In this document: piece after piece, positions 9,233 to 61,420 of the stretch
Numbering within the stretch: position 1 is the first letter of the stretch
Layout: each line of letters opens with the position of its first letter
Translations under genes and position numbers: made by a program
Source: Lophium mytilinum
Taxonomy: Eukaryota
Assembly (NCBI GenBank): GCA_010093605.1
Contig: MU004190.1
Coordinates: 1,571,599-1,635,598, forward strand
Length of the DNA: 64,000 bases
Direction: 5' to 3'
Notes under the pieces: generated by a model
Seen by the model: only the letters and a program-made list of their open reading frames with translations
Databases searched by the model: none
What the model was told of the DNA's origin: nothing

Positions 9233-10810
9233 CTAGGCCAAGTCCTTAGGGGTAGAAGGCTCGATAGCATCGACCTCCTCAACGCGGTCGAAAGACTTGG
9301 TGGGTGCGACAGGTTTGACCTTCTTCCCAAGCTCAAGAGGCTGGAGAGGCTTCAAGGGCTTGACGGGCTTGACTGGCTTGACTGGCTTGACGGGCTTGAC
9401 GGGCTTGACGGGCTTGACGGGCTTGACGGGCTTCACATACGGAACCTTGCGCCAGGGCCGTGAGGGCTTATCCGGCTGCTCGGGGGAGCTAGGCTTGGTC
9501 TCCTTGCAAGGCTTCTTGCCAGAGAAGTCTTTACCATCGTCCTTCCAGTCTGAAGGAAGCTGGCCGGTGCTCTTGTACTTGTGAATTGCCTGTCGATAGA
9601 TCCTGTTCCAATCGTTCGATTGGCAGCGTTGACCAACATGCCTGATCCGTTGCAGATAATCCGGGAGGGCGACAACGGTCCCGTTCTTGGGGTCCACCAC
9701 CTTGTCCTCTTCCCATGACTGCAGCTTGCGGTCGAACCAGTCAATCGTGCACCAGCTGCAAGAAGTCTGGTTTTCGCCTGGGCCGAAGGAGCGCTCACGG
9801 CGGTAGCCAGACCAATGTGCCCACGTGTCGTCGCACATGTCGTTCGCGGCCCCCCTGTACTTGTACCCAGGACGCTCAGTTCTCGCTATACGAGTGGCAC
9901 TCTCGATAAGGTCGAGGCCCTCGAGGTTGGCAGTGTTCATGCCGTCGACAACGAACCAGTCGTTGTACAGGTCATTGACACAGTAGTCTGAGCTGTAGTA
10001 AGAGAGGGGGTCCTTGCGACAGGTGTGCTCAAGACGACGCTGGATGGTCGAGATCACAGCAACGGGGCCGTCTTCAAGTCCCGGGTCGGCCGTGAAAGGA
10101 CCCAGGTAGTTTTCCATGTCGAACTTGTCGTCGGGCGTGCATTGAGATACGATGAGCTGGTAGGCTCGGTTGATAGAATCCGTGCAAGATCTCTGGCACA
10201 TTGGCCCGGAGTACTGAGTGGGATCAAGCTCGAATAGTGTTTCGTGCTTCCCGTTATCCCAAGAGCGGTTCCAGATCTTCTCGTGGCATGGAACGTAGGC
10301 GAGCGAGCTCCAGGCGGTCTGGCAGGCAGGGTTAGGGCCATATACCAGCGGAGGGAACACGGTAGGGAAATTGAGCCTGTTGTTCGAAGATTGCCATGGC
10401 TGGCTGAGGGGGATGTGAGTCCTCGGTTGATAGGATCGATAGTTTTGCGGGCAGTGGTCAGGACGTCGAGCGAGGATACCAGTGGAGATACTGAGGGCCA
10501 CAACGCTTGTAATCAGGAGACCGATGAAACCCATGATAGAAATGCTGGCCCAGCTTCGCTTTGAGCGCTTGGCGTTGGTCCCTGGACGACGGAACAAGCT
10601 CGCAAATCTCTGGAAGGGTCCTCGGCGGTGGGGGCAAGGCGTATCATTTCCACGAGTCCTGTGAGACAGAAGAGGTGCGCTAGTGCTGTAGAGACCTTCA
10701 TCGTCGCTAGCCTCGGCCTCGTCCCGAGTTGCTTCGACTCCGTCATCAATCCGCTCTTCGACCGGCTCCGCCGGCACAGGAGTGTAGTCCTGGGACGATG
10801 GTACACCCAT
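9233..10810 (-). CDS. Putative type II membrane protein with a Cys-rich ectodomain and a C-terminal (KPV)n repeat
   Basis: 525-aa ORF with one hydrophobic segment (ISIMGFIGLLITSVVALSISTGILA) after basic residues, several spaced cysteines and a KPV repeat. Confidence 0.7.
   Translation of the reverse strand: MGVPSSQDYTPVPAEPVEERIDDGVEATRDEAEASDDEGLYSTSAPLLSHRTRGNDTPCPHRRGPFQRFASLFRRPGTNAKRSKRSWASISIMGFIGLLITSVVALSISTGILARRPDHCPQNYRSYQPRTHIPLSQPWQSSNNRLNFPTVFPPLVYGPNPACQTAWSSLAYVPCHEKIWNRSWDNGKHETLFELDPTQYSGPMCQRSCTDSINRAYQLIVSQCTPDDKFDMENYLGPFTADPGLEDGPVAVISTIQRRLEHTCRKDPLSYYSSDYCVNDLYNDWFVVDGMNTANLEGLDLIESATRIARTERPGYKYRGAANDMCDDTWAHWSGYRRERSFGPGENQTSCSWCTIDWFDRKLQSWEEDKVVDPKNGTVVALPDYLQRIRHVGQRCQSNDWNRIYRQAIHKYKSTGQLPSDWKDDGKDFSGKKPCKETKPSSPEQPDKPSRPWRKVPYVKPVKPVKPVKPVKPVKPVKPVKPVKPLKPLQPLELGKKVKPVAPTKSFDRVEEVDAIEPSTPKDLA
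9351..9433. repeat. 9-bp coding tandem repeat (cttgacggg)n encoding KPV repeats
   Basis: About nine near-perfect 9-mers are directly visible. Confidence 0.9.
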
Positions 10811-27117: not shown

Positions 27118-27538
27118 CAGCGATAGTCATAAGTCTGGGCACACCCTTCACTAGGAAGCTTCGAGAACCTGAGACTGAAATCGACCTTCAAGCAGTGAAA
27201 GTTAGATTGCCTCTTGACTGACCGACTACCGAGTAACGCAGCTACCCCTTACAGTAGTGTCGAGTGAGCAAGATTTGAGCTCAGTAGTATTAAAGCCGCG
27301 TGTCCACGCTTATGATCGTATCAGTACTGGGCCATGAATTTGGGCACGCCTATACCACTGCTCTGTCTCATCTCTTGCTCTATCAGAACTATTGTGAGGA
27401 GTCCTCTGACTAGTGTCTCTCTAACCAGTTTGAAGGTGGGTAATGTCCACTGCATTGACCTTTATAATATATCTAGAGCTTCTAAACCCTACTGGGTGCC
27501 CCAAGCAGTGCCTAGACTCAAGTCATGACACCGTACTG
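27118..27538. mobile_element. Two abutting decayed MITE copies
   Basis: TIR-like cataagtctgggcac and cagtactgggccatgaatttgggcac; shared internal motif gctaccccttacagtagtgtcgagtgagcaag; ends ...tactg|ta. Confidence 0.6.
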
Positions 27539-28895: not shown

Positions 28896-28924
28896 CACGT
28901 GCGCAAATTTTAAGGGTATATATA
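28896..28924 (+). promoter_or_regulatory. CACGTG plus TATA box upstream of ncRNA copy A
   Basis: cacgtg at 28896-28901 and tatatata at 28917-28924, about 31 nt before the start of the terminal stem; equivalent elements precede copies B and C. Confidence 0.6.
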
Positions 28925-28947
28925 CTAAAGTATTTTGAACAGAATCT

Positions 28948-29147
28948 AAAGAAACTCGACTCACAGTCCTGTGCCGGGCGATGACATAGCACACTCACTC
29001 AGTGTGTTAGAGCTCACGCTACTCTAAACCGCACATCCAAGGACATCGTGCCGGGCGCTGACATAGCACACCCAATCATCGCAATGGCGCGGTGTGTTAG
29101 AGCTCACGCTATTCCAAACCGCACAGAGACGAGTTTCTCTTTTTTTT
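28948..29147 (+). ncRNA. Candidate Pol III structured ncRNA, copy A (terminal stem plus two conserved bulged hairpins, 28971-29034 and 29048-29124)
   Basis: Motif gtgccgggcg(a/c)tgacatagcacac-loop-gtgtgttagagctcacgcta(c/t)tc(t/c)aaaccgcac occurs twice; 5' agaaactcgactc pairs with 3' gagacgagtttct; T8 at 29140-29147. Confidence 0.75.
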
Positions 29148-29175
29148 GCATTCTACCTCTCTTATTAGAGGACCT

Positions 29176-29186
29176 GGTTCGACTCG
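29176..29186 (+). promoter_or_regulatory. Pol III B-box downstream of ncRNA copy A
   Basis: GGTTCGACTCG about 29 nt after the T-run, with no tRNA cloverleaf around it. Confidence 0.7.
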
Positions 29187-30685: not shown

Positions 30686-30910
30686 GTTGTCGAAGGTGAG
30701 GCAAAAAAGATCGGTGAAGAGGAGAGGGTTGGTGGAGTTGGGTCGATGAAGCCTTCAGAGTCTCAATAAGTCAACAGGCCGGACAAAAGTATTCCCTTTT
30801 TGAAGGTCACGTGGATCCCACTACAGTACCAAGCTAAGGTAGAGTAGCACACTCGTTGCGACTGCTTAGGGTACCCCAATAGCTTTTGAAACTATGAATA
30901 CGAGGTACAG

Positions 30911-31450
30911 GTCAAGGAAATGGATATTAGGCCGCCTTTTGGTCAACTTAAAACCTGCCCGTTGAGCCCCTCCTTACAGTGGCATAGAGCATGCAAGAAT
31001 AGACCCTAAAAAGTGCTATATTGGTGTTGTGTTCTTACAAGACCTAGATTTATAGTATTGGTCAACGAAATGAATATTAGGCCGCCTTTTAGTTAACTGA
31101 AAACCTGCCCGTTGAGCTCCTCTTCACAGTGGCATGGAACAAGCAAGAATAGACCCTGAAAAGTACTATGTTAGTGTTGTATTCTTACGAGACCTAGATT
31201 TATGGTATTGGTCAACGAAATAAATATTAGGCCGCCTTTTGGTCAACTAGAAACCTGCCCGTTAAGCCCCTCTTTACAGTGGCATGGAGCAAGCAAGAAT
31301 AGACCTTGAAAAGTGCTATATTGATGTAGTGTTTTTAGGGGACCTAGATTTATAGTAAAGGTCAATGTAATGGAGATGAAGCTACCTTTTAGCGAGGGTA
31401 TCACCTGCTACCTGAGACACCCCTTACAGTCGTGTCGAGAGGGCAAGAAT
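30911..31450. repeat. 150-bp tandem repeat, about 3.6 copies, inside a MITE copy (~30824-31503)
   Basis: gtcaa starts at 30911, 31061, 31211 and 31361, an exact 150-bp period; the units contain the MITE internal motif ttacagtggc...gcaagaata. Confidence 0.9.
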
Positions 31451-31597
31451 ACAGCCGGAAATATCCAGGCTACAGGCACCAAATTCATTATGATATAGTA
31501 CGGTATTCGATTTAGAAAAGGGAAAGAGGCTACGAGGAAGGCGTCGTAGTGCCGCTACAAAGCATATACCTTCGTAGACGTCTGAAATTAGACGATA

Positions 31598-31823: not shown

Positions 31824-33309
31824 TACCATTCTGGCTACCGGGATGTTCAGCTCTTTCGAAGGGTTTCAATCACCTTTGGTTACAAAGTGTAGATGTTTGG
31901 TCAGAAGCTGATCATCTCATTCAAATTTCTGATGATAGACTAAAGAGCCTAAGACGGTCGTAACGCGGTATATACAACTATTGGAAATGAAGGATCGTTG
32001 TGGCCTCTGTTGTAGCATCGCATGTCCGTCAAGAAGAGATTAGCCCGATGCGCGAGGGAGTGGTGGAATGTCTTGCGTACCGCCATTCCTGTGGTTTGCG
32101 AAGGGGATATCCACTAAGGACTTTTCAGAGTGGGCGGGGAGTAATGTATCGAACCTAGCGTGTCTTCGAGCTCATCAGCACAGAGAGGATCAATCAGCTT
32201 TCCATTTCCCTGAATGAGGACTCAAGTTCTGCTAGTAGCAGAGAGCGTTTTCAAGTTACACGTTTTATAATATTTCGTCTTTCCTCTACAAGTTATTATC
32301 CTTAAAAGCGCAAGTAAGACAGTTATAGCCCATTTAGTCGTGGGCAGCGGTCTAGTTTCTTCTTCGTGATATAGGATAAAATTATCTTTACCTCTTACAT
32401 AATTGTACCTTGATGCAAATCACAAGGAGTGCAATATTTTCAATTGCCACTTTAGTCTTCCTCGAAGCAATTATGCGTATTCTCATGTATGTGTATGTCA
32501 ATTTTCTACGTGCGCTGAAGCTTTCAGTGTTTGTAATACTCCATCAGTAATCGGTGTTAGCAGCGAAAGAGGCCGCCGAGCTCATTATGTCTAACGTCAC
32601 TTACTGGCTCCCAGGCATATCAAAGTATCTCTCTCGTGTGATATGAAGAATCCAAACACAATGTATAGATCAAAGGAATATACATCAGACTACCGCTTGA
32701 CCAACCGAACGCAGATTGGCTGGGGCACTCCTTACAGTGGTGTCGAGGGAGCAAGAGTGGCGGCGAATCAGTGCTATATCTGTATGGCTTGATTGGTGAC
32801 CTAGCACCTTGGCATAGCATGCGAAACATATTTATGGTCACACACTTGCTGCTCTCTTGCAAACCACCATTTGGTACTATTTCCTAAGCCTACGCACGCG
32901 GATTCATTACTATTTAGCTTGAAGTATGCTCACTTAGCTATGCTGTTGACATCTGAAATGGGATTTCTCAGTAGGTTGAGCCACCTCAGACGGTACGATG
33001 ACGTGTGCAAACGTTTAGTCACAGCATTGCATATCAGACTCTTGATTTTAGACGTCAACTTTTCAAATTCGTATTAGGCTCATCACACAGCACGACCCCC
33101 CAACCTACCCCTACCTTCCACCACCCCCAGCCACTCTTGCAACCAGCGCCCGCCCCCGACAGCGTGCCCCCTTCGGGCACAAAGGCCACCCGGACTCGCA
33201 CGCCGCGGGATTGAAACGCTGGCCACGAAGAGCTGCGGCCAGAGGTGTTGGAAGGAGGGGAGGAGGGACAGTGACCACCCGATTTCAACCCACCTCACCC
33301 CTCCTACCC

Positions 33310-34236
33310 CTATTCTTCATCTTCTTCGGCCTCCTCTTCTAGCCTCCTCCTCTCCCGCCTGCTCCGCCTCTCCTCCTTGTCCCTCAGCGCCTTAACCTCC
33401 TCCTCCAACGCCTCAACCTTCTTCCCCAGCTTCCGGTTCTTTTTCTCGACTATATCGAGAATCTTCCCCATCTTGTACATCTCGTCTATGCAGAATTACT
33501 CGTTAGCATGTGTCATCTCTGTACAGTGAAAGGCCACAAGTCTGGCCACTGGTACGCCACTGCTTGGGGTACCCCCATAGGGGTTTGAAGACTCTAGGGC
33601 GATGTCAAGATTCAGGCAGTGCAGATTGGACTGCCTCTTGACTATTCGCCCGTCCAGCAGTCAGGCTACCCCCAACAGTGGTGTTGAGTGGGCAAGAGCT
33701 AAGTCCGTGTGCCCAGACTTGTGGCCTAGGGTTGTACTGGTAGGAAAACAAGGGAGGGACAAGACTTACACTGGAGGTTTTCCAACTCCAGCCTCGTCTC
33801 CACCGTCTCTACGACCCCCTCCATCTCTATGTCTTCGTCGTCATCGTCGGCTATAAACTTACATTAGTGCACTATCCTACTAGCCAACGTACTGACATGT
33901 GCGTAAAGCTACCGGATCTCGAAAGACCTCAATGAGCACACAGATCACAAGGAGTGCACTTACGAACGGCAGGCGGGGGGGACTCCCGCGTCTCCTCCTC
34001 CTCCTCCTCCGGCTTCTTCTTGGTCTTCTTCTCCTTCTTCCGGGGAGCGGCGCGGGGCTTGGGGAGGCGGCGGGGGCGGGCTTGGCGGCCGGCGTTGGCG
34101 CGGGTTTGCTAGAAAGAATTAGCATTGCGTGAAACTCTAGACGATCAGGGGTTCTAAGCTGGATGATATAGAGGCAGGTGAAAGTACAAAAGGAAATTAC
34201 AAGATAACTTACGGAGCGGGTCTGCATGGTGGCCAT
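33310..34236 (-). CDS. Small orphan four-exon protein (basic N-terminus, acidic middle, coiled-coil C-terminus); paralog of 56021-56953
   Basis: MATMQTRS|QTRANAGRQARPRRLPKPRAAP...|...|YEMYKMGK...KKVEALEEEVKALRDKEE; introns of phase 0,1,1 keep the frame. Confidence 0.7.
33524..33734. mobile_element. MITE copy inside intron 3 of the 33310-34236 gene
   Basis: TA|CAGTgaaaggccacaagtctggccac ... gtgcccagacttgtggcctagggttg|TA. Confidence 0.8.
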
Positions 34237-34571
34237 CTGGAGGCTCGTCCAGACGCTGTGTGATGATGATGTGACTAGGAAAGAAAAAAAAGGGAATTGA
34301 GGGAACCTTTATACGACAGCTCATAGCACTAAACTTCACCCCACTAGCGTGGTACTACATTTGGTGAAGGCTGCGGGGAAGTGAAGTTTGGGATGCGGCA
34401 CCCATGGTGAAGTTAGAGATACTCGCCAGCCTGGAATCGATAGATTCAAGGTATAATGTGTGGGTAGATTGATCCCAACTACCTAGTACAGTACAGTTAA
34501 TACATGGACAGGCCATAATTCTAGGCACGTGAGCAGTAGATGAGATAGAGATCACGAAAACGGGAGAGGAA

Positions 34572-35477: not shown

Positions 35478-35880
35478 GTCTTGCTCATTCAACACCACTG
35501 CAAGGGGTAGCCTGGCTCTTAAGTAGCCAACCAGTCAAAAGACAGCCTGATTTATACTCTTTGAAACTTAGTATAGCTCTTAGATCTTCAAGAACTCATA
35601 GCGTACTCCAAGCAGTGGCGAACTAGTATGCCTAGGTTTCTGACCTGTCAATGACGATCAGACGAGAAGTCTAGGCACCCGTATCTAGTATTGATTGCCT
35701 CTAGTGTTGCTCACTTAACGCCACTGTGAAGGGTAGCCTGGCTGCTAAGCAGTCGTGCAGTCAAGACGCAGCCTAATTCGCACTGCTTGAAACTAGCACC
35801 GCCCTTGATCTTCGAGACCCTATGAGGGTATTCCAAGCAGTTGCGAACCATTGTGAAAAGGCTTATGCCTTGCAGTAGTG
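35478..35880. mobile_element. Two tandem decayed MITE copies (reverse orientation)
   Basis: ttgctca...ccactg...gggtagcctggct...gtcaa...ccaagcagt-gcgaac occurs twice. Confidence 0.7.
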
Positions 35881-40106: not shown

Positions 40107-40346
40107 CAGTACAAGACCACAAGTCTAAGCACATGGATTTTTCACTGCTTAGCATCGATGTTGCTCGCTTGACACCACAACACCACTGTAGTGGGTAGCC
40201 TGGTTGCTTAGGTACCGGCCGGTTAGTCAAGAGGCATTCTAATCTACACTACTTCAAACTCGACGTCACCGTTGAATCTTCGAAATCCTATGGGATCACC
40301 TCTAGTAGTGGCGAGCCAGTGTGTCTAGACTTATAGCTCATCAATA
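40107..40346. mobile_element. MITE copy
   Basis: TA|CAGTacaagaccacaagtctaagcac ... ccactgtagtgggtagcctgg ... gtgtctagacttatagc. Confidence 0.7.
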
Positions 40347-49410: not shown

Positions 49411-49813
49411 CAACCGGATAATCTTATTACCCTTCCGAACCCGACTTGTTGCCTACCTTGGGATAAGGAAGCCGAATGAAGTCCGCTGGCTCTCTCTTAG
49501 CACTGCCTGAGGTGGCTCCATGGGCGTATCGAATCCTGGACATGATTTCTTGACACCCTTACTACCTGCTAGCTGGGGTACTCCAAACAGTGCTATCGAG
49601 TGAGCAAGATGGAACCTAAGCAGTGGTGATCCCATGTGCCCAAATTTGTGAATAGAAGAGAAATACAAAGCGCCCGCGTATGGAGATATTATTCTCTGAG
49701 CTGGCGAGGTATTTTGTTCGGGTTGGTGTTTGTCGGACCTGAAGACTACATCACCACACTACCAACCTCCCCCAGTCAAGCGCAAGCACTACTACTTCCA
49801 CAAGTCTTCCACA

Positions 49814-50839: not shown

Positions 50840-51060
50840 CTGGTCTGGGCGTACCGACTTACTACCTTTCCGCCCTAAGTTTGCTCAATTGATACCACTG
50901 TGAGGAGTAACCCGGCTAGCTCGTAGATAATGATTCAAGTAGTAGTCCGACTTGCACTGCTTGGACCTTGACATCCCACCCAAATGAGTAAAAGCTTGCG
51001 GGGTACCCTAAGCAGTGGTTTTCTAAACGGGTGTGTACAGCCTTCTAGCTTGTCAGTTTA
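50840..51060. mobile_element. Decayed MITE copy
   Basis: gtctgggcgtac, ttgctcaattgataccactgtgaggagtaacc, gggtaccctaagcagtgg. Confidence 0.6.
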
Positions 51061-52209
51061 CTTTGGTTGCTTGCTTGATCGCGATAGCTGAAAAACTTTT
51101 GTCACACATAGTTGTAGAAGCTGCAGAGAGAAGGGGTTATAATGCGGAGGCAGGGAGGTCATGGTTGGCTCGCTACCCCCGGGGACCCATGGGGCGCCTT
51201 GCTATTCCAAGTCTGGGCCAAAACCCTATCTTCACGTCCCAGCATCACCCATCGCCTGCGTTCAACAACGACGGCGTGTCCAAGCAAGGAGAGTCAAAAC
51301 TGATGATATTGTACACTGTGGTCCTAATCTGACATCTTTGTCTTAGAAAGTGGCCGGAGTCGAGGTTACTTCAGGGTATTCGAGAGCCGCAACATGAAGA
51401 AAAACAGCTTCAGCTACTCCTGCCTGCGCTGTGGTAATGACTTCACGTTAGGCTATCCAGAGGTCCAAGTCATACTACTCAGCTTCTTCGACCTATAGTT
51501 GAGAATTATGACACCTCCAGCCGCTCCCGCCAGTGCTGAGATAATTGAGTTACGGTCGGTCGATGGCAAAGTCACGGTCTTCGGACTTTTGTATCTGTAA
51601 TTGAAAAGAAGAACGGCTTAGACCGCTCCTCCCAGCGTTCTGGTGATGATTACATGGTATGCTGATGTGCAAATCAACAAAGTACTCCATCTTCGCGGTC
51701 AATATGTCTAATCATCAATCCCCACCTCGCTTCGCAGCACTGGGAGGAGTACCCTAGCTAGGATTTGTCTATTAAGTCGAAAGATGGCTCGTTTTCCATT
51801 GCTTGGGGTTTTTCATCGTACCTGGAGTTTCCAAAAGCCTATGCTCAGGCTGCTCTTTGCAGTCTGGATGCCGCTGTTAGGAGTGCGCCAGCTCGAGAAT
51901 TATAGCCACATTATGCATCAAATCTTAAAGCATTAGATCTCAAAGAAAACATACGTGAAGGGCTTGGTCGCGATAAGAGCATTCAAGGTCCTAAATGCCG
52001 CTTGCTGAGGCAGCCATGCGAGCTGTTTATCATCCGGGGAATCGCCGCATGAGCTTGACAGATGAAGGTTGTATTACTATTTGGCTGTGGGCACACATGA
52101 CGTGATGTGCGCATCTCTGATCGGGCGGGCTCGGCACGTGCGTTAAGTAAAGCGCAGGTGCGCAACCGTTTTTTGAGGTACATATTTTGAAATATTCTAG
52201 AGGTATATC

Positions 52210-52416
52210 AAAAGTTGCGAACCGTGTTCTGTGCCGGGCGATGACATAGCACACTCAAGCAGTGTGTTAAAGCTCACGCTACTCCAAACCGCACATCCAA
52301 GGGCATTGCAGTACCGGGCGCTGACACAGCACACTCAATCATAGCTTGCCACGGCTCAGTGTGTTGAAGCTCACGCTACTCCAAACCGTACAACGCTTAA
52401 GGCGACCAACTTTTTT
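52210..52416 (+). ncRNA. Candidate Pol III structured ncRNA, copy B (hairpins 52231-52294 and 52311-52391)
   Basis: Same motif twice; terminal stem aaaagttg/caactttt; T6 at 52411-52416; tacatatt at 52179. Confidence 0.75.
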
Positions 52417-52445
52417 GCACCTTGGAGACCCTCTTTGGAGACCCT

Positions 52446-52456
52446 GGTTCGAATCG
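52446..52456 (+). promoter_or_regulatory. Pol III B-box downstream of ncRNA copy B
   Basis: GGTTCGAATCG about 30 nt after the T-run. Confidence 0.7.
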
Positions 52457-52722
52457 TAGAGCGGTTGAATCTTTTTGCATTCCCAACTTTTTTCTTATCG
52501 CAATTAGCTCGAAGCTTAGAATGTTCACTTTCATCAAGCTCGCTGATTTGCTGCGGTCTGAGCTTTGATGCATCCAAAAAGACGTTGTACTCGAACTGCA
52601 TCGGCATAAACCCCAACTACCCATCCTCCAGCCATCGAAACAACCTCCCCACCTTACGCCCACCACATACCGCACCCACCTCCGCTCCATCTACGCAATC
52701 GCGCTTTTTGCACTCAAACCAA

Positions 52723-54753
52723 ATGGAGCACTTGATCTCCACCATCAGGAAGATATGGGTACCGCTGCCGGATTCTCTCATACCCATCGACATCTCTCCA
52801 CGCAAAGACTACAATCCCCACCAAATCAATCTTTCCCACTGGCCGCCCATTGATCTGCTACAACGTGTCCAGATCATCGCCCAGGTTATTGGAGAGAAGG
52901 ATTATTTGTATGCGCACGCGCGCATGCGGCGCGCTGTGGATATTCGCATTAGAGAGACCGAAGAAGATGGAGAGAAATACTGCGGCGAGCGCCTGAAATT
53001 GTTTGAGGCACAAGATGCCTCCGCTCTGATCAAGGAGCTCCGACTTGAAAAGCAAGGCCGCTCGAAAGCGCCATGTAGAGCTGCGGTGCTGGCGGAGTAT
53101 GGAGGCGCCGCCGACCCTTCGATGGATCCAAAGCCTCCGAAACCTATCACTGAAGGGCCTCCGGCTGCTGGAGAGTATTCGGGTAAGCAGCAAGCAACGG
53201 GGAACTGCGAACGCGATGACATCAATCAGCACTTCTCTAACTCAGCCAATCATCCACCATTTCGGAATCCTACTCCAGAGCCATCGGCAGCGCAGATTCA
53301 GGTCCAGTCAGAGATTGATGTCGATTCAGAAGGTCTTCGCGAGACGACGGACAGTTCTACGCGCATCGGGCTTCACACATCACCACACTTGCATGCGGCT
53401 CAATATTTGGCGCCCACGCAACCTGTACTTGCGACACATGTACAAAAGCGGAAGTGGGACGGAGGGGGCCCACCGCCAGAAAGCACTCGAAACATTAGGC
53501 GGATCCCCCAATCTTGGCTGTCGTCGATGCAAACAAGCGAAGAAGACCTGCCGGGACTATATAGGAAACATGACAACGTCGACCCCTTTGCGCCTGAAAA
53601 TGGGCAGGACCACCGCGCAAAGATCCCCAGCATAGAAAGCAGCATTGTCGGCCAGAAGCCTGCCGCACCAGATACCACAGCGAGCCAACCTACTAGCCCT
53701 TTCGTAGCCCCACCAATGCATTACTCAAGTAACATGAGCTCTGCGCTGCCTCAAAGCTCTCCCCTGACAGAAGTAGTCAGTCTTGAAATGTCTGCACCCC
53801 CATCAAGACCTCCACATGCTTCCAGGCGTCGCAAGAAGTCTCCACCACGTCGACCTACGCAAGAAGAACTCGCAAGTGATGAAGCCGATGACGATCCTTT
53901 TGACGGAATTATCCCAGGAAGACAACCTGCCCTTCCCAACAGAAGCGATAACCTGACCGCGCAAGTTGTTGCCCTCAAGCTCGAAAATGAACGTTTGAAA
54001 GCAGGCCAAGCCAGTCTACACGAGTCGCTTGCAATTTTAGTCAGAGACCTACATCAACGGCAAAGTGAAGTCAACGCGCTGAAGGCTAGAAAGGCCAGTG
54101 CACCGCAGCTTCCCAAGTCCTTGAAGGCGTCTGAGGACAGGGTCAAGGAGCTTGAGAAGGAGATTCGAGATCTCCAGTCGCGCCCTCTCACCATCAATGA
54201 GTTCTTTGTGCAGACGCTGGAGGAGCTACGGGAGCGGATGCTTTTGTCTTTCTCTGACGAAGAGGGAACTGTCGATAACGAGGATATCAAGAAACTGAAG
54301 GGCGCTATCCATGCTACTAGCAAAGGCCTCTCAGACGATGAAGTCTTGCGTGAACACCTCGGTCGTGACGAAGAGATTAGAGAGAAGGCCGACCAGAAAT
54401 TGGAGACGGCGGAGACGACCCTTCAGGACTACCTTGAAGCTCTCGATTCGGATGTTCACGCTGAGCTCATGACATTGATTGGCGATGTCGCAAATGCACG
54501 GGAATCAGCTGTCGCTGCCGAACGCGATGAGGAGCGATCACAGCAACGCTTGTCCAGACATAACATGATGAGGATACGCGCGGAGCAGTACAAATATTTG
54601 GCAGAGGAGAAACATGGGGGGCTTCATATCGATCCCCTCATGAGGGACTTGCTTGTTCCCGCAGTGAGGTTTAAGCAAGCGGTTGAGCCTTCAACCGGCG
54701 GCGAAACTGGGATAACAACTAGATCTGGTCGCAGCATAGGTGGAAATGGATAA
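52723..54753 (+). CDS. Orphan ~676-aa protein with a disordered centre and coiled-coil C-terminus
   Basis: Long intronless ORF with first ATG at 52723; the ORF track's TTG start at 52435 overlaps the B-box region and is unlikely. Confidence 0.7.
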   Translation: MEHLISTIRKIWVPLPDSLIPIDISPRKDYNPHQINLSHWPPIDLLQRVQIIAQVIGEKDYLYAHARMRRAVDIRIRETEEDGEKYCGERLKLFEAQDASALIKELRLEKQGRSKAPCRAAVLAEYGGAADPSMDPKPPKPITEGPPAAGEYSGKQQATGNCERDDINQHFSNSANHPPFRNPTPEPSAAQIQVQSEIDVDSEGLRETTDSSTRIGLHTSPHLHAAQYLAPTQPVLATHVQKRKWDGGGPPPESTRNIRRIPQSWLSSMQTSEEDLPGLYRKHDNVDPFAPENGQDHRAKIPSIESSIVGQKPAAPDTTASQPTSPFVAPPMHYSSNMSSALPQSSPLTEVVSLEMSAPPSRPPHASRRRKKSPPRRPTQEELASDEADDDPFDGIIPGRQPALPNRSDNLTAQVVALKLENERLKAGQASLHESLAILVRDLHQRQSEVNALKARKASAPQLPKSLKASEDRVKELEKEIRDLQSRPLTINEFFVQTLEELRERMLLSFSDEEGTVDNEDIKKLKGAIHATSKGLSDDEVLREHLGRDEEIREKADQKLETAETTLQDYLEALDSDVHAELMTLIGDVANARESAVAAERDEERSQQRLSRHNMMRIRAEQYKYLAEEKHGGLHIDPLMRDLLVPAVRFKQAVEPSTGGETGITTRSGRSIGGNG

Positions 54754-54809: not shown

Positions 54810-57475
54810 GGTATATATGTATTGTCAGTCCCCAGTGTCTGAAGTGACGTAGCAGGGTATCAAGTTTGTCAAAATGATAGTCGTGTGCTTTATATGAATG
54901 GTTTAAAGCCCTTCAAACGGCGTCCAGACAGTAGCAGTTTACTTCGCTTCTGTCACGAATCAGTTCTATGTTGTGAGATAGCTATGTAAGTGTACATACT
55001 AAGCCGCGCTTTTACTATGTAACCCTGTACTCTGTACTTCAAAAGGAGCTTTAGCTCTTGATCTCTCATTTTGGAGAGAAGAAATCAGTTTGGAGGTCCT
55101 GTAGACGAGACGAAACTCATACACAACTCAACGTAAAAGTAGAGTTGCTAATGAGGCAGTGAGATAGATTGTACAGGATGGTTAGCTATGAACCAGAAAG
55201 CCATACTATGTAAGACCCACAGACACTTCAATCTATATATTGAAGTGTATGTGACGCACGATCCATAATTTTCACTTCTGCGCCAAGATCTCCGCCATTC
55301 TTGCAATGTTTTCGGCCATCGTGATCATTTCCCGTTCCGAGCAGGCCACCCTTGTCTCCAGATGTCCGACTTTTCCATTGGCCTGCGCAAGCCCTCCTTG
55401 GAGACTGTGAATGGTTCCATACGCTTCGCTTAATCTCTCCGCCGTCGCCTTCCCCTTGCGCTGCTCGGCAGCCTTTGAACTCTGAATACGCTTTATCTGA
55501 GTCCTCTGATAGCGTAAGTTGATCCACACGGCTTTAGCCTCGTGATCGTTTCTCACTAGATCAACTTACATTAGTATTTCGTATCACTAGTTTCAGCGTT
55601 GAACGCAGTTTGTACTGCCTCAATGCCTAAGGCCTCACTACGCGAGACGGAATAGAACGTCAGCTATGGAACTTACCGCGCGGAGAGATCCACGTGTGCC
55701 TCATCTGAATGGTTTGAGGTCCTTCAAACGGCGTCTGGACAGTAGCAGCATACTTCCCTTATATTATGAATGAGTTGTACTATGCGTTCTCTACGTAGCA
55801 CCTGTCCAAGAGCTATGTGCAACAGCTCTATAATCGCGATTGTTTGGGGAATCAATACAACTATGAAGGATCCAGGTTTTGACACTATTCCTGGCGCTTT
55901 ACAAAACTGAGACTTCCTTTTGGAAACATTAGGCTATCGTTTTTTGGGAACAGAAACACCGTATGAGGTGGCTTTGTAAGTATACTAGTTATCTCCGGTG
56001 TCACTCTCTATGCCTAATCTTTATTCTGCCTTCTCCCGCAGCAGCCTAACCTCTTCCTGGAGGGCTTGATTCTCCGCCTCTAATGCCGCAATTTTCAACT
56101 CCATTTTACTATACGCCTCACTATGCGCCTCATCCTTATCCTTGATCGTCTCACGTAGTCCGAGTATTTCCTCCTCCATCTCAGTCATTTCAACTACAAA
56201 CATCAAATATTAGCATTCGTACATCTAATTTCACATCCTAAGATGCCAGCTGCAAGACCTAGAGACTCCCTAAGATGTCAGAGTGTGCCCCAACATCGGA
56301 AATATTCGAGGTACACATCTTAATCTAGGAATTTTAGAGTCTAGAGCTAGGCAGGTTGGATTTGAAAGATAGGATAATAAGAAAACATACCAGAAAGAGA
56401 CTCCACGGTCGGCTCCGTCACCAGATCCTCCGGCATAACTAATCGCTCATCTTCACTGTCCGAGCGCTCACTACAGGCTACGAAAATCTATTAGTACGTT
56501 ACTTTGCTCCAAAAACGATATACTACCAAAAAAACCTTGATACAATAGTATCTAGACTCTCTTAAGTATGATTACAAGAACACTTACTAACGAAGAGGGA
56601 GGGTGACGCCTCCCGGTCTTTTTCCGGCTCCTCCTCCTCCGGCTCCTCCTCCTCCGGCTCCTCCTCCGGCTCCTCCTTCTTCTTCCCAGCCTTTGGGCGG
56701 GCGCGAGGGCGCAGCGCGGAGGTGCCAAGGGCAGCCTTGGGCTTTGGGAGGCGGCGGGGGCGGGGAGTTCGGCTTCCTCTTCCTCCTCCTCCTCCTCCTC
56801 CTCGTTTGGCCTATATGATAGTTAGCATTGCTCTCGACACTGGGGTAAAAACGTGAAATATCTTGATAGAGGAAGCAAAACATTGACCGAAAATATGGGC
56901 AATGTCGTAAAGCTTATGAAGGAATAAGAAGGATAACGTACAAATGTCACCATGTTTATGACTATTAAGAGGCTCGTCTTGCAGTCGCTGTGTGAGGCTA
57001 ATGCTACCTGGAGAAAAGAAAAAGGGAATTACTGGAACCTTTATACGGCACCCCAAAGCACTAATCTTCACTTCAATCACTATAGCACTAACCTTCACTT
57101 TAGTAGTATTGTGTCTAAGCTGCCGAAAGTGGAGGGAAATCGATGTTCATGATGCGGGCGGGATCCAAGGTGAAGATGGAAAGGTGAAGGTGAAAAGATA
57201 CCGGTGCTCGGCTTGTGACATGAAGTCGCGCAAAAGTTCCCTACCACCGCTATAATGATTCAATTGGCCAGTATATGCTAGGGAAGCGGCTTGTTTATTA
57301 AGATATGTGTATATTCGATCACCAGTGCCTGAAGTGGGGTGGCGCGGTATGAAGCTGTCAAAATGATAGTCGTGTGCCTGACGTGAATGGATGGTTTATT
57401 GCCCTTCAAACAACGTCGAGCTAGTGGCAGTAAACTGCACTCCTGTCGCGAATGACTTATACATAACATGTACGT
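54810..57475 (+). repeat. Three dispersed direct repeats (~54810-54985, ~55690-55790, ~57300-57475)
   Basis: Shared core cgtgtgc...tgaatgg...ccttcaaac..cgtc...agt.gcag...act; copies 1 and 3 also share ccagtg.ctgaagtg...tgtcaaaatgatagtcg. Confidence 0.8.
56021..56953 (-). CDS. Small orphan four-exon protein; paralog of 33310-34236
   Basis: MVTF|AKRGGGGGGRGSRTPRPRRLPKPKAA...|TCSERSDSEDE...|VEMTEMEEE...KIAALEAENQALQEEVRLLREKAE; intron phases 0,1,1. Confidence 0.7.
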
Positions 57476-58606: not shown

Positions 58607-58855
58607 CAGTGACGGTTGTTCGCCACTGCTTAGGGTTCCCCCTCAGGATTGCGGAGATCCAAAGGCGAAGTCGAGGTTCAAGTAGTGTAAATTAGACTAT
58701 CTTTTCTCTAATTGGCTGCTCGGCAGGCAGGCTACCCCCAACAGTAGTGAAAATGCGCTGCTTGAAACTCGACATTGGTCTTAGGCTTTTGATATCCTGT
58801 GAGAATATCCCAAGCAATGGTGGACGAGTCTACGCAGCCTTATGACCGCTCACTA
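58607..58855. mobile_element. Rearranged MITE (left arm followed by an inverted left arm)
   Basis: TA|CAGT...gccactgcttagggttcccc...caggctacccccaacagtagtg, then ctgcttgaaact...cccaagcaatgg...cttatgacc in the opposite orientation. Confidence 0.6.
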
Positions 58856-60314: not shown

Positions 60315-60325
60315 CGGTTCGAACC
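60315..60325 (-). promoter_or_regulatory. Pol III B-box downstream of ncRNA copy C
   Basis: GGTTCGAACCG on the minus strand, about 20-27 nt past the T-runs. Confidence 0.7.
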
Positions 60326-60344
60326 CAGACCTCCCAGGAGGAAC

Positions 60345-60559
60345 AAAAAACAAAAGAAATTGGTTACCAAGGTGCGGTTTGGAATAGCGTGAGCTCTAAC
60401 ACCCCGAGCACATTGCTATGATTGGGAGTGCTATGTCATCGCCCGGCACGGCGTCTAGGATCCTTTGTGATGTGCGGTTTGGTGTAGCGTGAGCTCTAAC
60501 CAACTGAGCAATTGCTGTAGTTGGCTATGTCAGCGCCCGGCACGGATCCCAATTTCTTT
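60345..60559 (-). ncRNA. Candidate Pol III structured ncRNA, copy C (hairpins 60472-60543 and 60372-60449)
   Basis: Reverse complement of the same motif twice; 11-bp terminal stem aaagaaattgg/ccaatttcttt; T4 and T6 runs; TATAAATA at 60582-60589; CACGTG at 60616-60621. Confidence 0.75.
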
Positions 60560-61420
60560 GGAACCTGCCAAAATATTTTGGTATTTATACGCCAAAAAGT
60601 CGCTTAGCTCACTTTCACGTGGCAGCCACCCGATATTTCTCCACCACCATCTTTCACCCGCAATCCTCCTTCATCTCCTTTCGACAGCTGCCTGACTAGC
60701 TAATGTAGACCTTGCCAGCGCTTTGTTACCACGCTTCTAACTCTCTCTGTTACTTGTCACTAACAACCAAGTCCTCACGTCTCCACACCCCAGACAGTCA
60801 ACACGTTACCTCATGACTCCTCTATTCGGGCGAGAGGGCTTTTCGCAGTCCTTACCTTTTGGCATTTACGGCAGTCGCCTTACAACCTGTGTGCCACAAG
60901 TGCCAAGTGCAACAGGGTCAAAGCCCGTCCTGACTCCTCTACAGCGAATCCCAATTCGGCGAATGGTTAGTTCCCGACCACGGACTCAATCTATCTACCA
61001 AGGACCTCCTATGGATCTTACTTTGCCTCCACATCACTGAACCTCGTGTCTGGGAATACACTGCCGCATGGTTGCGGTAGTTCTTGGTATTTGATTCGGT
61101 ATATTGAGGACGCAGAAATGGGAGGATGGGGATGCGCGGTCAACAAACGGAGGCGAGAAAGACGAGTGGGAATTGGAAGTTACTGAATATACCACCGTTC
61201 CTATCCTGTTCTTGCGACCTAGACACCACTGTAAGAGATATCCTAGCTACAACGTCTTCACTTAGTCAAAATGTAGTCTCATATCCACTTCGTCGAGTTT
61301 TCCATCTTATCTAGGGCCTTCGAAACCTATCGCATTAGCCTATGCAGTGGCAGAGAGTGCGCTATCTTAAGGCTTGGTAATATACATTCTCCACTACACC
61401 CATCTTTCGTCGTCCTTCAC

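Follow-up and report, generated by a model that had tools for sequence, protein, structure and literature searches.

To our knowledge, few small Pol III transcripts are known in fungi beyond tRNA, 5S, U6, 7SL and RNase P RNA. The Y, vault and EBER/VA-type RNAs are transcripts of ∼100–200 nt whose ends are paired in a terminal stem, which carry a 3′ oligo-U and which have conserved bulged helices as protein sites. H/ACA snoRNAs have an H box (ANANNA) in the hinge and an ACA three nucleotides from the 3′ end. For the yeast U6 gene, SNR6, the parts of PMC9136082 that deal with its promoter describe a TATA box ∼30 bp upstream, a terminator and, downstream of the latter, an extragenic B-box. In Neurospora, hairpin RNAs are made by Pol III from TATA-like promoters, as set out in the relevant portions of PMC3547838.

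Here we analyse a ∼200-nt unit that a motif search found three times (copies A, B and C) within the window, that is, the whole 64-kb stretch of ascomycete DNA that was analysed. The reading that accounts best for the data as a whole, and which we hold to be moderately probable, is that these are three paralogous genes for a structured ncRNA of ∼200 nt. In its size, paired ends, predicted 3′ oligo-U and bulged helices, this RNA would be like the Y, vault and EBER/VA-type RNAs, a working analogy drawn from the general features of those RNAs. There is no sequence or covariance-model similarity to them, and they are not known to have an internal duplication that yields two homologous arms. The two hairpins and hinge are also like those of H/ACA snoRNAs, with an ACA directly after the basal helix in five of the six hairpin units and a comparable spacing of 15–16 nt from the middle helix to that ACA. 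Unlike in H/ACA snoRNAs, an H box is present in only one of three hinges, a long tail that pairs with the 5′ end continues past the ACA, and the bulge is one-sided.

The gene layout is close to that of SNR6, as far as the latter is covered by the same parts of PMC9136082, in having a TATA box ∼30 bp upstream, a T-rich stretch from TATA to start, a T-run terminator and a B-box past the terminator. It differs from Saccharomyces cerevisiae SNR6 in that the RNA is unrelated to U6 (no Rfam match) and is encoded in three copies, in that the B-box is only 18–28 nt after the terminator, whereas it is much further downstream in SNR6, and in having CACGTG upstream and no clear A-box. The features shared with the Neurospora milRNA precursors, judged from those portions of PMC3547838, are a filamentous ascomycete host, hairpins, TATA-like elements, poly-T and a link to tRNA-type sequence. 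In contrast to those precursors, conservation here is in the basal helices and loops and not in a diced duplex.

Three copies of a two-hairpin unit

Copy B, the stretch singled out by the sequence-only reading, occupies positions 52210–52416 on the forward strand. It is predicted to give a ∼207-nt RNA composed of a terminal helix (P0), hairpin 1, a hinge, hairpin 2, a 3′ tail and a U-run, with its 5′ and 3′ ends placed from the helix and the T-run. Copy A (28948–29147, forward strand, ∼200 nt) has its hairpins at 28971–29034 and 29048–29124 and ends in a T8 run at 29140–29147. Copy C is on the reverse strand (60559–60345, ∼215 nt), with hairpins at 60543–60472 and 60449–60372, and ends in a T4 and then a T6 run (60355–60345). 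The order of the elements is the same in every copy: an A-rich 5′ strand, hairpin 1, a short hinge, a homologous hairpin 2, a 3′ tail that pairs back and a T-run. In A, B and C alike the terminal stem encloses the two homologous hairpins. The copies are clustered inside 32 kb, not dispersed.

A covariance model, R1, was built from the six hairpin units and, with filters off, was used to scan the window from end to end. It found exactly the six units, with scores of 84.4–103.8 bits, while the other five of the 11 listed matches scored at most 11.4 bits. The scores were 84.4 and 103.8 bits for the units of copy A, and 85.0 and 100.8 bits for those of copy C. In copy B, hairpin 1 (unit B1; 52231–52294, forward strand) scored 85.7 bits and hairpin 2 (unit B2; 52311–52391, forward strand) scored 94.1 bits.

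According to the sequence-only reading, the terminal stem of copy B is a different sequence from that of copy A and yet still pairs, and our analysis agrees. On the forward strand, copy B pairs AAAAGUUG (52210–52217) with CAACUUUU (52407–52414), and copy A pairs AAAGAAACUCG with CGAGUUUCU, a 13-nt inverted repeat of 92%; on the reverse strand, copy C pairs AAAGAAAUUGG with CCAAUUUCUUU, an 11-nt inverted repeat of 100%. In all three genes P0 pairs best with its own partner (−12.6, −6.8 and −12.6 kcal/mol for A, B and C, respectively), the six non-cognate combinations of 5′ end and 3′ tail giving −2.4 to −7.4 kcal/mol. For the A and C stems, none of 1000 shuffles each was as good. The B stem taken alone is not significant, since −6.8 kcal/mol was equalled by 112 of 1000 shuffles of the 3′ tail. 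With the three genes side by side, P0 has three positions with two or three different Watson–Crick pair types. The terminal stem is convincing only when the three copies are taken together.

An alternative in which the 5′ end pairs with another T-rich site, past the B-box, was considered and set aside. It was notable only in copy B, with −8.1 kcal/mol (23 of 1000 shuffles as good) versus −6.8 kcal/mol at the first site. Neither A nor C has a comparable site (302 and 47 of 1000 shuffles as good, respectively).

Some other features of the window may be recorded here. The window is eukaryotic, with genes for a DEAD-box helicase and a RanGTP-binding protein, and the nearest Atlas clusters of the RanGTP-binding protein are for the most part from Ascomycota. 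Two further long ORFs, at 52435–54753 (forward strand, 772 aa), beginning just downstream of copy B, and at 9233–10810 (reverse strand, 525 aa), had no Pfam match at E ≤ 0.001. A separate family of 87-nt direct repeats, with 70–80% identity, is found between B and C (54882–54968, 55693–55779 and 57375–57461). Short collinear similarities (79–96% over 26–103 nt) connect 33983–34339 with 56637–57071 at an offset of ∼22.7 kb, and copy A is 23.26 kb from copy B, a hint that an old segmental duplication may have carried the RNA gene along with neighbouring sequence.

Putative promoter and terminator signals

Distances to the TATA-like elements were counted from P0, which also sets the presumed start site. 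Canonical boxes are present 31 nt before the first base of A (TATATATA; 28917–28924, forward strand) and 30 nt before that of C (TATAAATA; 60582–60589, reverse strand). The box 31 nt before P0 of B (TACATATTTT; 52179–52188, forward strand) is degenerate and aligns with the A and C boxes. A T-rich stretch is found between the TATA-like box and the start. Further upstream there is a CACGTG at −52 of copy A (28896–28901), −75 of copy B (52135–52140) and −62 of copy C (60616–60621), out of a total of 21 such sites in the 64 kb. The T8 (A), T6 (B) and T4 plus T6 (C) runs occupy the same structural place, the 3′ end of P0, in all three copies, and the T6 run at the 3′ end of the B terminal stem (52411–52416, forward strand) is a putative Pol III terminator.

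The consensus of the tRNA-type B-box is GGTTCGANTCC and that of the A-box is TRGCNNAGTGG. A B-box-like motif matching this consensus at nine of 10 positions is found 27 nt after the T-run of A (TGGTTCGACTCG; 29175–29186, forward strand), and another, also at nine of 10, is found 28 nt after the T-run of B (TGGTTCGAATCG; 52445–52456, forward strand). The motif 18 nt after the T6 run of C (GGGTTCGAACCG; 60315–60326, reverse strand) is nearly palindromic, with eight of 10 positions matched. The three motifs are at +229, +237 and +235, and score 9/10, 9/10 and 8/10 in gene orientation and 6/10, 7/10 and 9/10 on the opposite strand. They are the only B-box-like motifs in the window, the search pattern itself having been derived from the copies. 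Past the B-box, each copy has a second T-run. The best A-box matches reach seven of the nine specified positions and are in the hairpin tips, at differing places, and none is convincing.

The combination of a TATA box at −30/−31, a terminator and an extragenic B-box is the layout of SNR6, and from this layout we infer transcription by Pol III. A U6-like promoter that directs Pol III to these genes seems on balance probable.

A small hairpin is present between the T-run and the B-box, formed by CCUCU/AGAGG in A (29156–29171), CUC/GAG in B (52432–52441) and CCUCC/GGAGG in C (60337–60326, reverse strand), and it seems to covary (CCUCU/AGAGG versus CCUCC/GGAGG). A covarying hairpin in this place would fit transcription past the T-run and is hard to square with efficient termination by Pol III. 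Copy B has the 11-mer CCAACTTTTTT at 52406–52416 and again at 52483–52493, so that it brackets a 66-nt segment with the B-box; the pair resembles a target-site duplication or a duplicated terminator. Within the bracketed segment a ∼12-nt motif, TTGGAGACCCT, is tandemly duplicated (52421–52444).

These could be the same structured RNA genes and yet be made by Pol II, like fungal snRNA or independent snoRNA genes, with the TATA box and CACGTG as the promoter and with the U-run and small stem-loop as an Sm-like or termination region and not a Pol III terminator. Pol II transcription would suit the presence of a TATA box at −30 and an upstream CACGTG in all three copies and the lack of a good A-box, and the compensatory-looking hairpin right after the U-run makes sense if it is transcribed. 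The Sm consensus, however, is RAU(3-6)GR, and the U-runs here depart from it in being flanked by C/G…GC or GU, besides being partly paired in P0. Under Pol II transcription there would also be no role for the B-box, with its 8–9 of 10 matched positions at a fixed distance in three of three copies, and none of the Rfam snRNA or snoRNA models gives a match. We regard Pol II as an unlikely source of the RNA.

Hairpin fold and covariation

When folded alone, all six units, B1 among them, reach one common minimum-energy shape. Its 6-bp basal helix, P1, pairs GUGC-(bulged C)-GG with CC-GCAC, and each hairpin contains an invariant one-sided 9-nt bulge, UAYNCYAAA. The middle helix, P2, is invariant and consists of GCG-(bulged A or C)-UGA paired with UCA-CGC, plus a C–G pair. 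Beyond P2 come a small internal loop, a 9-bp upper stem that covaries (P3), and a variable tip.

Since the MAFFT and covariance-model alignments left five cells of C1 gapped, the six units were parsed by hand, giving 22 pairs in each of six units, or 132 cells. In this parse all 132 cells are standard pairs and none is broken. Six of the 22 pairs are variable, each of them changed on both sides, and one-sided changes are absent. The deviant cells number seven, all two-sided, with two each in B2, C1 and C2 and one in A2. Among the unpaired core columns, five of 15 vary, each singly. The covariance-model alignment, counted by the tool, gave 127 of 127 cells paired and four pairs with two-sided changes. 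On this alignment, only 1 of 500 column shuffles was as good as the observed data, on four of five measures, with the caveat that related sequences may beat shuffles without any structure. When the pairing partners were slid by 1–3 columns, which preserves relatedness, 18–48% of cells were paired and no two-sided change was seen. All of these covariation counts describe three paralogues (six hairpin units) from one 64-kb window.

Two of the changes had been noticed in hairpin 2 of copy B by the sequence-only reading, and both are borne out by the other units. In the basal helix, GUG/CAC becomes GUA/UAC, a G–C to A–U change at pair 3/80 where the other five units all have GUG…CAC. In the upper stem, UAGC/GUUA becomes CAGC/GUUG, with C…G at pair 17/57 versus U…A in the other five (U–A to C–G). 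P1b and P2 do not have this kind of support, because neither ever varies across the units; a DNA-level promoter function could be partly responsible for their invariance.

A different topology, in which the 5′ strand of hairpin 1 pairs with the 3′ strand of hairpin 2, was given by RNAalifold on the MAFFT alignment. In this cross-pairing, the paired change of B2 produces a C·A mismatch (93/120). Because the GUA/UAC change breaks the cross-pairing, two independent hairpins are favoured, an argument that rests on that one event.

Other helices covary between the copies. Below hairpin 1, a 5-bp helix pairs GUCCU with AGGAC in A, GUUCU with AGGGC in B and GAUCC with GGAUC in C. Units C1, B2 and C2 have AGC/GCU as their apical mini-stem and A2 has CGC/GCG, while units A1 and B1 have lost this tip. 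Pair 19/55 of P3 is G·U in all six units, and a U·G is also present in C2. Since these would become C·A mismatches on the opposite strand, it is the strand ending in the T-run that carries the fold, and such strand-specific G·U pairs argue for an RNA rather than a DNA palindrome. The stability of the fold is unremarkable, with z = +0.35 for the whole of copy B and z values of −0.15 to −2.39 for single hairpins. Thus, the case for the RNA is made by covariation, not by thermodynamic stability.

The 9-nt bulges of A1, B1/B2 and C2 are complementary to the purine strand of the small hairpin that precedes the B-box (UUAGAG in A, UUUGGAG in B and UGGGA in C, respectively), and in A the complementarity takes in the private C>U change of A1. 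This match may be due to chance; if real, such pairing would imply read-through transcripts and a long-range interaction or switch.

The hairpins might alternatively be a precursor of small RNAs, that is, a Pol III-made pri-milRNA as in Neurospora, whose arms are diced to microRNA-like RNAs. Pol III transcripts that have TATA-like elements and poly-T are indeed the source of the major Neurospora milRNAs, and one of these is linked to tRNA sequences, according to the same portions of PMC3547838; here, two hairpins are upstream of a tRNA-like B-box. The pattern of conservation, however, is the reverse of that expected for dicing. The upper stem, which would be the dicing site, is variable and covarying, whereas the invariant parts are the basal helix, the bulges and the 9-nt loop, and the uninterrupted duplex is only 9 bp. 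A milRNA precursor is, in our judgement, quite improbable.

Selection versus neutral decay

By blastn, A aligns with B over 28966–29125 and 52226–52392, A with C over 28908–29124 and 60598–60372, and B with C over 52228–52391 and 60546–60372. The similarity among the three copies is confined to the region from about −40 through the end of hairpin 2, and the linkers, apical loops and flanks have diverged beyond blastn alignment. Identity between copies is 80–100% in the hairpin cores and 36–69% in the 5′ tail, hinge and 3′ tail; identities of the long flanks were excluded, as the aligner's free end gaps make them unreliable. Conservation thus alternates over tens of bases, which is not expected from gene-conversion tracts or from a uniformly decaying repeat.

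It had been proposed from copies A and B that selection maintains the structure, and that the units are not neutral duplicates. The 132 cells without a one-sided change, together with cores that are kept and flanks that have decayed, uphold this proposal. Independent variation of paired positions, which would have spoken against it as more copies were added, is not what the six units show, as their variable stem positions change together with their partners. The compensatory changes demonstrate, as far as a comparison of these copies can, purifying selection on the fold. It is accordingly very likely, on the sequence evidence, that a structured RNA gene under selection is real.

A MITE-like family of the same window, ∼150 nt in length and strongly self-pairing, served as an internal control, with five copies. 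Of the 36 pairs predicted for this family, 18 are disrupted in one or more of the five copies, and 24 of 180 cells have a broken pair or a gap. The covariation term (+1.2) counts against the structure, and two-sided changes do occur in eight pairs. The earlier statement that the nearby MITE copies lack the pattern seen in copy B is thus roughly correct, half of the predicted pairs being broken in some copy.

The MITE-like family (70–88% identity) is found at 27176–27280, 30904–31461, 32721–32779, 33547–33704 and 35479–35856, with further copies at 40168–40324, 49569–49616, 50935–51018 and 58612–58765. It includes a tandem array with a period of 150 bp (30904–31461).

A non-autonomous mobile element, either a tRNA-related SINE or a MITE, could in principle keep palindromes for DNA-level reasons. 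The units are multi-copy and have a tRNA-type B-box, MITE-like repeats are abundant in the window, and in copy B the 11-nt direct repeat CCAACTTTTTT brackets the B-box segment in the manner of a target-site duplication. However, A and C have neither terminal inverted repeats nor target duplications bounding the whole unit, and upstream promoter elements are kept at a fixed distance in all copies. The divergence is a fine mosaic rather than uniform, the G·U pairs that are conserved are specific to one strand, the copies form a cluster of no more than 32 kb, and the MITE-like control decays with broken pairs. A mobile origin is therefore very unlikely. That the copies are neutral duplicates whose compensatory changes arose by chance is hardly credible, for although there are only six units, all paralogous, and column shuffles can be beaten by related sequences without structure, seven two-sided changes stand against no one-sided change and no broken pair among 132 cells, slid partners that keep relatedness give no two-sided change, three additional helices covary, and the cores have been kept between flanks too decayed to align.

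Database searches and known RNA classes

No Rfam 15 model matched anywhere in the window at gathering thresholds, nor did any match in 52150–52500 (copy B) at E ≤ 10. ARAGORN found no tRNA in the window, and a degenerate tRNA around the B-box was rejected, as relaxed ARAGORN calls differ in type and strand across the three loci. A pattern scan of metagenomes gave five loci, all on unrelated bacterial-looking contigs; at least 121 loci were obtained from prokaryote contigs, and 0 and 28 from two scans of viral contigs. For the 154 metagenome, prokaryote and viral loci that were fetched, among the matches listed, the best R1 score was 17.6 bits, compared with 84–104 bits for true units, and we take these loci to be chance matches.

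Three surveys of fungal RNAs were also compared. No two-arm, multi-copy RNA of this type is recognisable among the 15 fungal motifs of PMC5640933, by their main-text description. Nothing recognisably alike is found among the 17 fungal structures of PMC8216456, whose unnamed candidates, such as 'intergenic structure 2', were compared by description only, or among the Aspergillus fumigatus ncRNAs of PMC2377427, whose Afu candidates were likewise compared by description only. A 20-mer of the core had no occurrence that we could find in literature text.

Several classes were considered and rejected. The units do not qualify as an H/ACA snoRNA, since ANANNA is found in one of three hinges and the one-sided 'pocket' is identical in all six units. 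An ACA follows hairpin 2 in two of three genes and is then succeeded by a tail of 23–27 nt that pairs with the 5′ end. Each hairpin has GCGAUGA or GCGCUGA inside it, which brings a box C/D snoRNA or kink-turn to mind. When compared with the consensus, the position opposite, which should be GA, is AA in both B units, and there is no free guide region. The kink-turn or C/D register was dropped because it conflicts with the covarying pair 17/57.

SINEs carry internal A and B boxes at the 5′ side of the transcribed region, have a tail that is A-rich or LINE-derived, and are flanked by target-site duplications. In the present units, the B-box is beyond the T-run, copies A and C have no flanking duplications, and the upstream TATA box and CACGTG are conserved. 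MITEs have terminal inverted repeats and a target-site duplication, and their copies decay roughly uniformly. Here the one long inverted repeat is the internal P0 helix, conservation is a mosaic, and the MITE-like family of the window behaves differently. The strings GCCGGGCG and GCUCACGC are, we presume, common to the units and the 5′ domain of 7SL/Alu; this resemblance was discarded, with no SRP model matching in the Rfam scans. A 5S-like three-way junction was discarded also, there being no Rfam match.

Discussion

A simple scheme can be proposed for these genes. Pol III would start from the TATA-like box at −30/−31, with the conserved upstream CACGTG as an extra element, and would terminate at the T-run that is built into the terminal stem. 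The extragenic B-box, 18–28 nt past the terminator, is predicted to bind TFIIIC. In the transcript, the A-rich 5′ end would be joined through P0 to the 3′ tail and the first part of the U-run, thereby closing a two-hairpin junction. More speculatively, the mature RNA may keep a short 3′ oligo-U overhang, which is a typical site for La protein.

Also more speculative is the suggestion that the RNA acts as a stable RNP scaffold that presents two near-identical protein-binding modules, much as Y, vault, 7SK or EBER RNAs do with their protein sites. The module would combine the basal helix and its bulged C with the 9-nt bulge, P2 and the small internal loop, all of them identical in both arms and in all copies, with the covarying P3 and the variable tips acting only as spacers. 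That the RNA is such a two-module protein scaffold, rather than a guide RNA or a small-RNA precursor, is possible but falls somewhat short of probable. The alternatives for its function are a precursor of small RNAs or a guide RNA that acts through the 9-nt bulge.

Taken together, the copies probably represent a new family of Pol III-transcribed ncRNAs, as judged from their sequence. In a bolder and more tentative version, this would be an undescribed Pol III RNA family of filamentous ascomycetes, an internal dimer that forms an abundant RNP with two copies of a protein (or a protein dimer), a fungal counterpart of the Y, vault or 7SK class of regulatory scaffold RNAs that is expressed from a U6-type promoter with CACGTG.

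An RNA that is multi-copy, strongly constrained and built with the same module twice would suggest a ribonucleoprotein that is still uncharacterised. The genes would also provide a second natural example of a U6-style promoter with the B-box placed past the terminator. Pol III promoters serve for the expression of guide RNAs in filamentous fungi, and a U6-style promoter of this kind would be of practical interest for that use.
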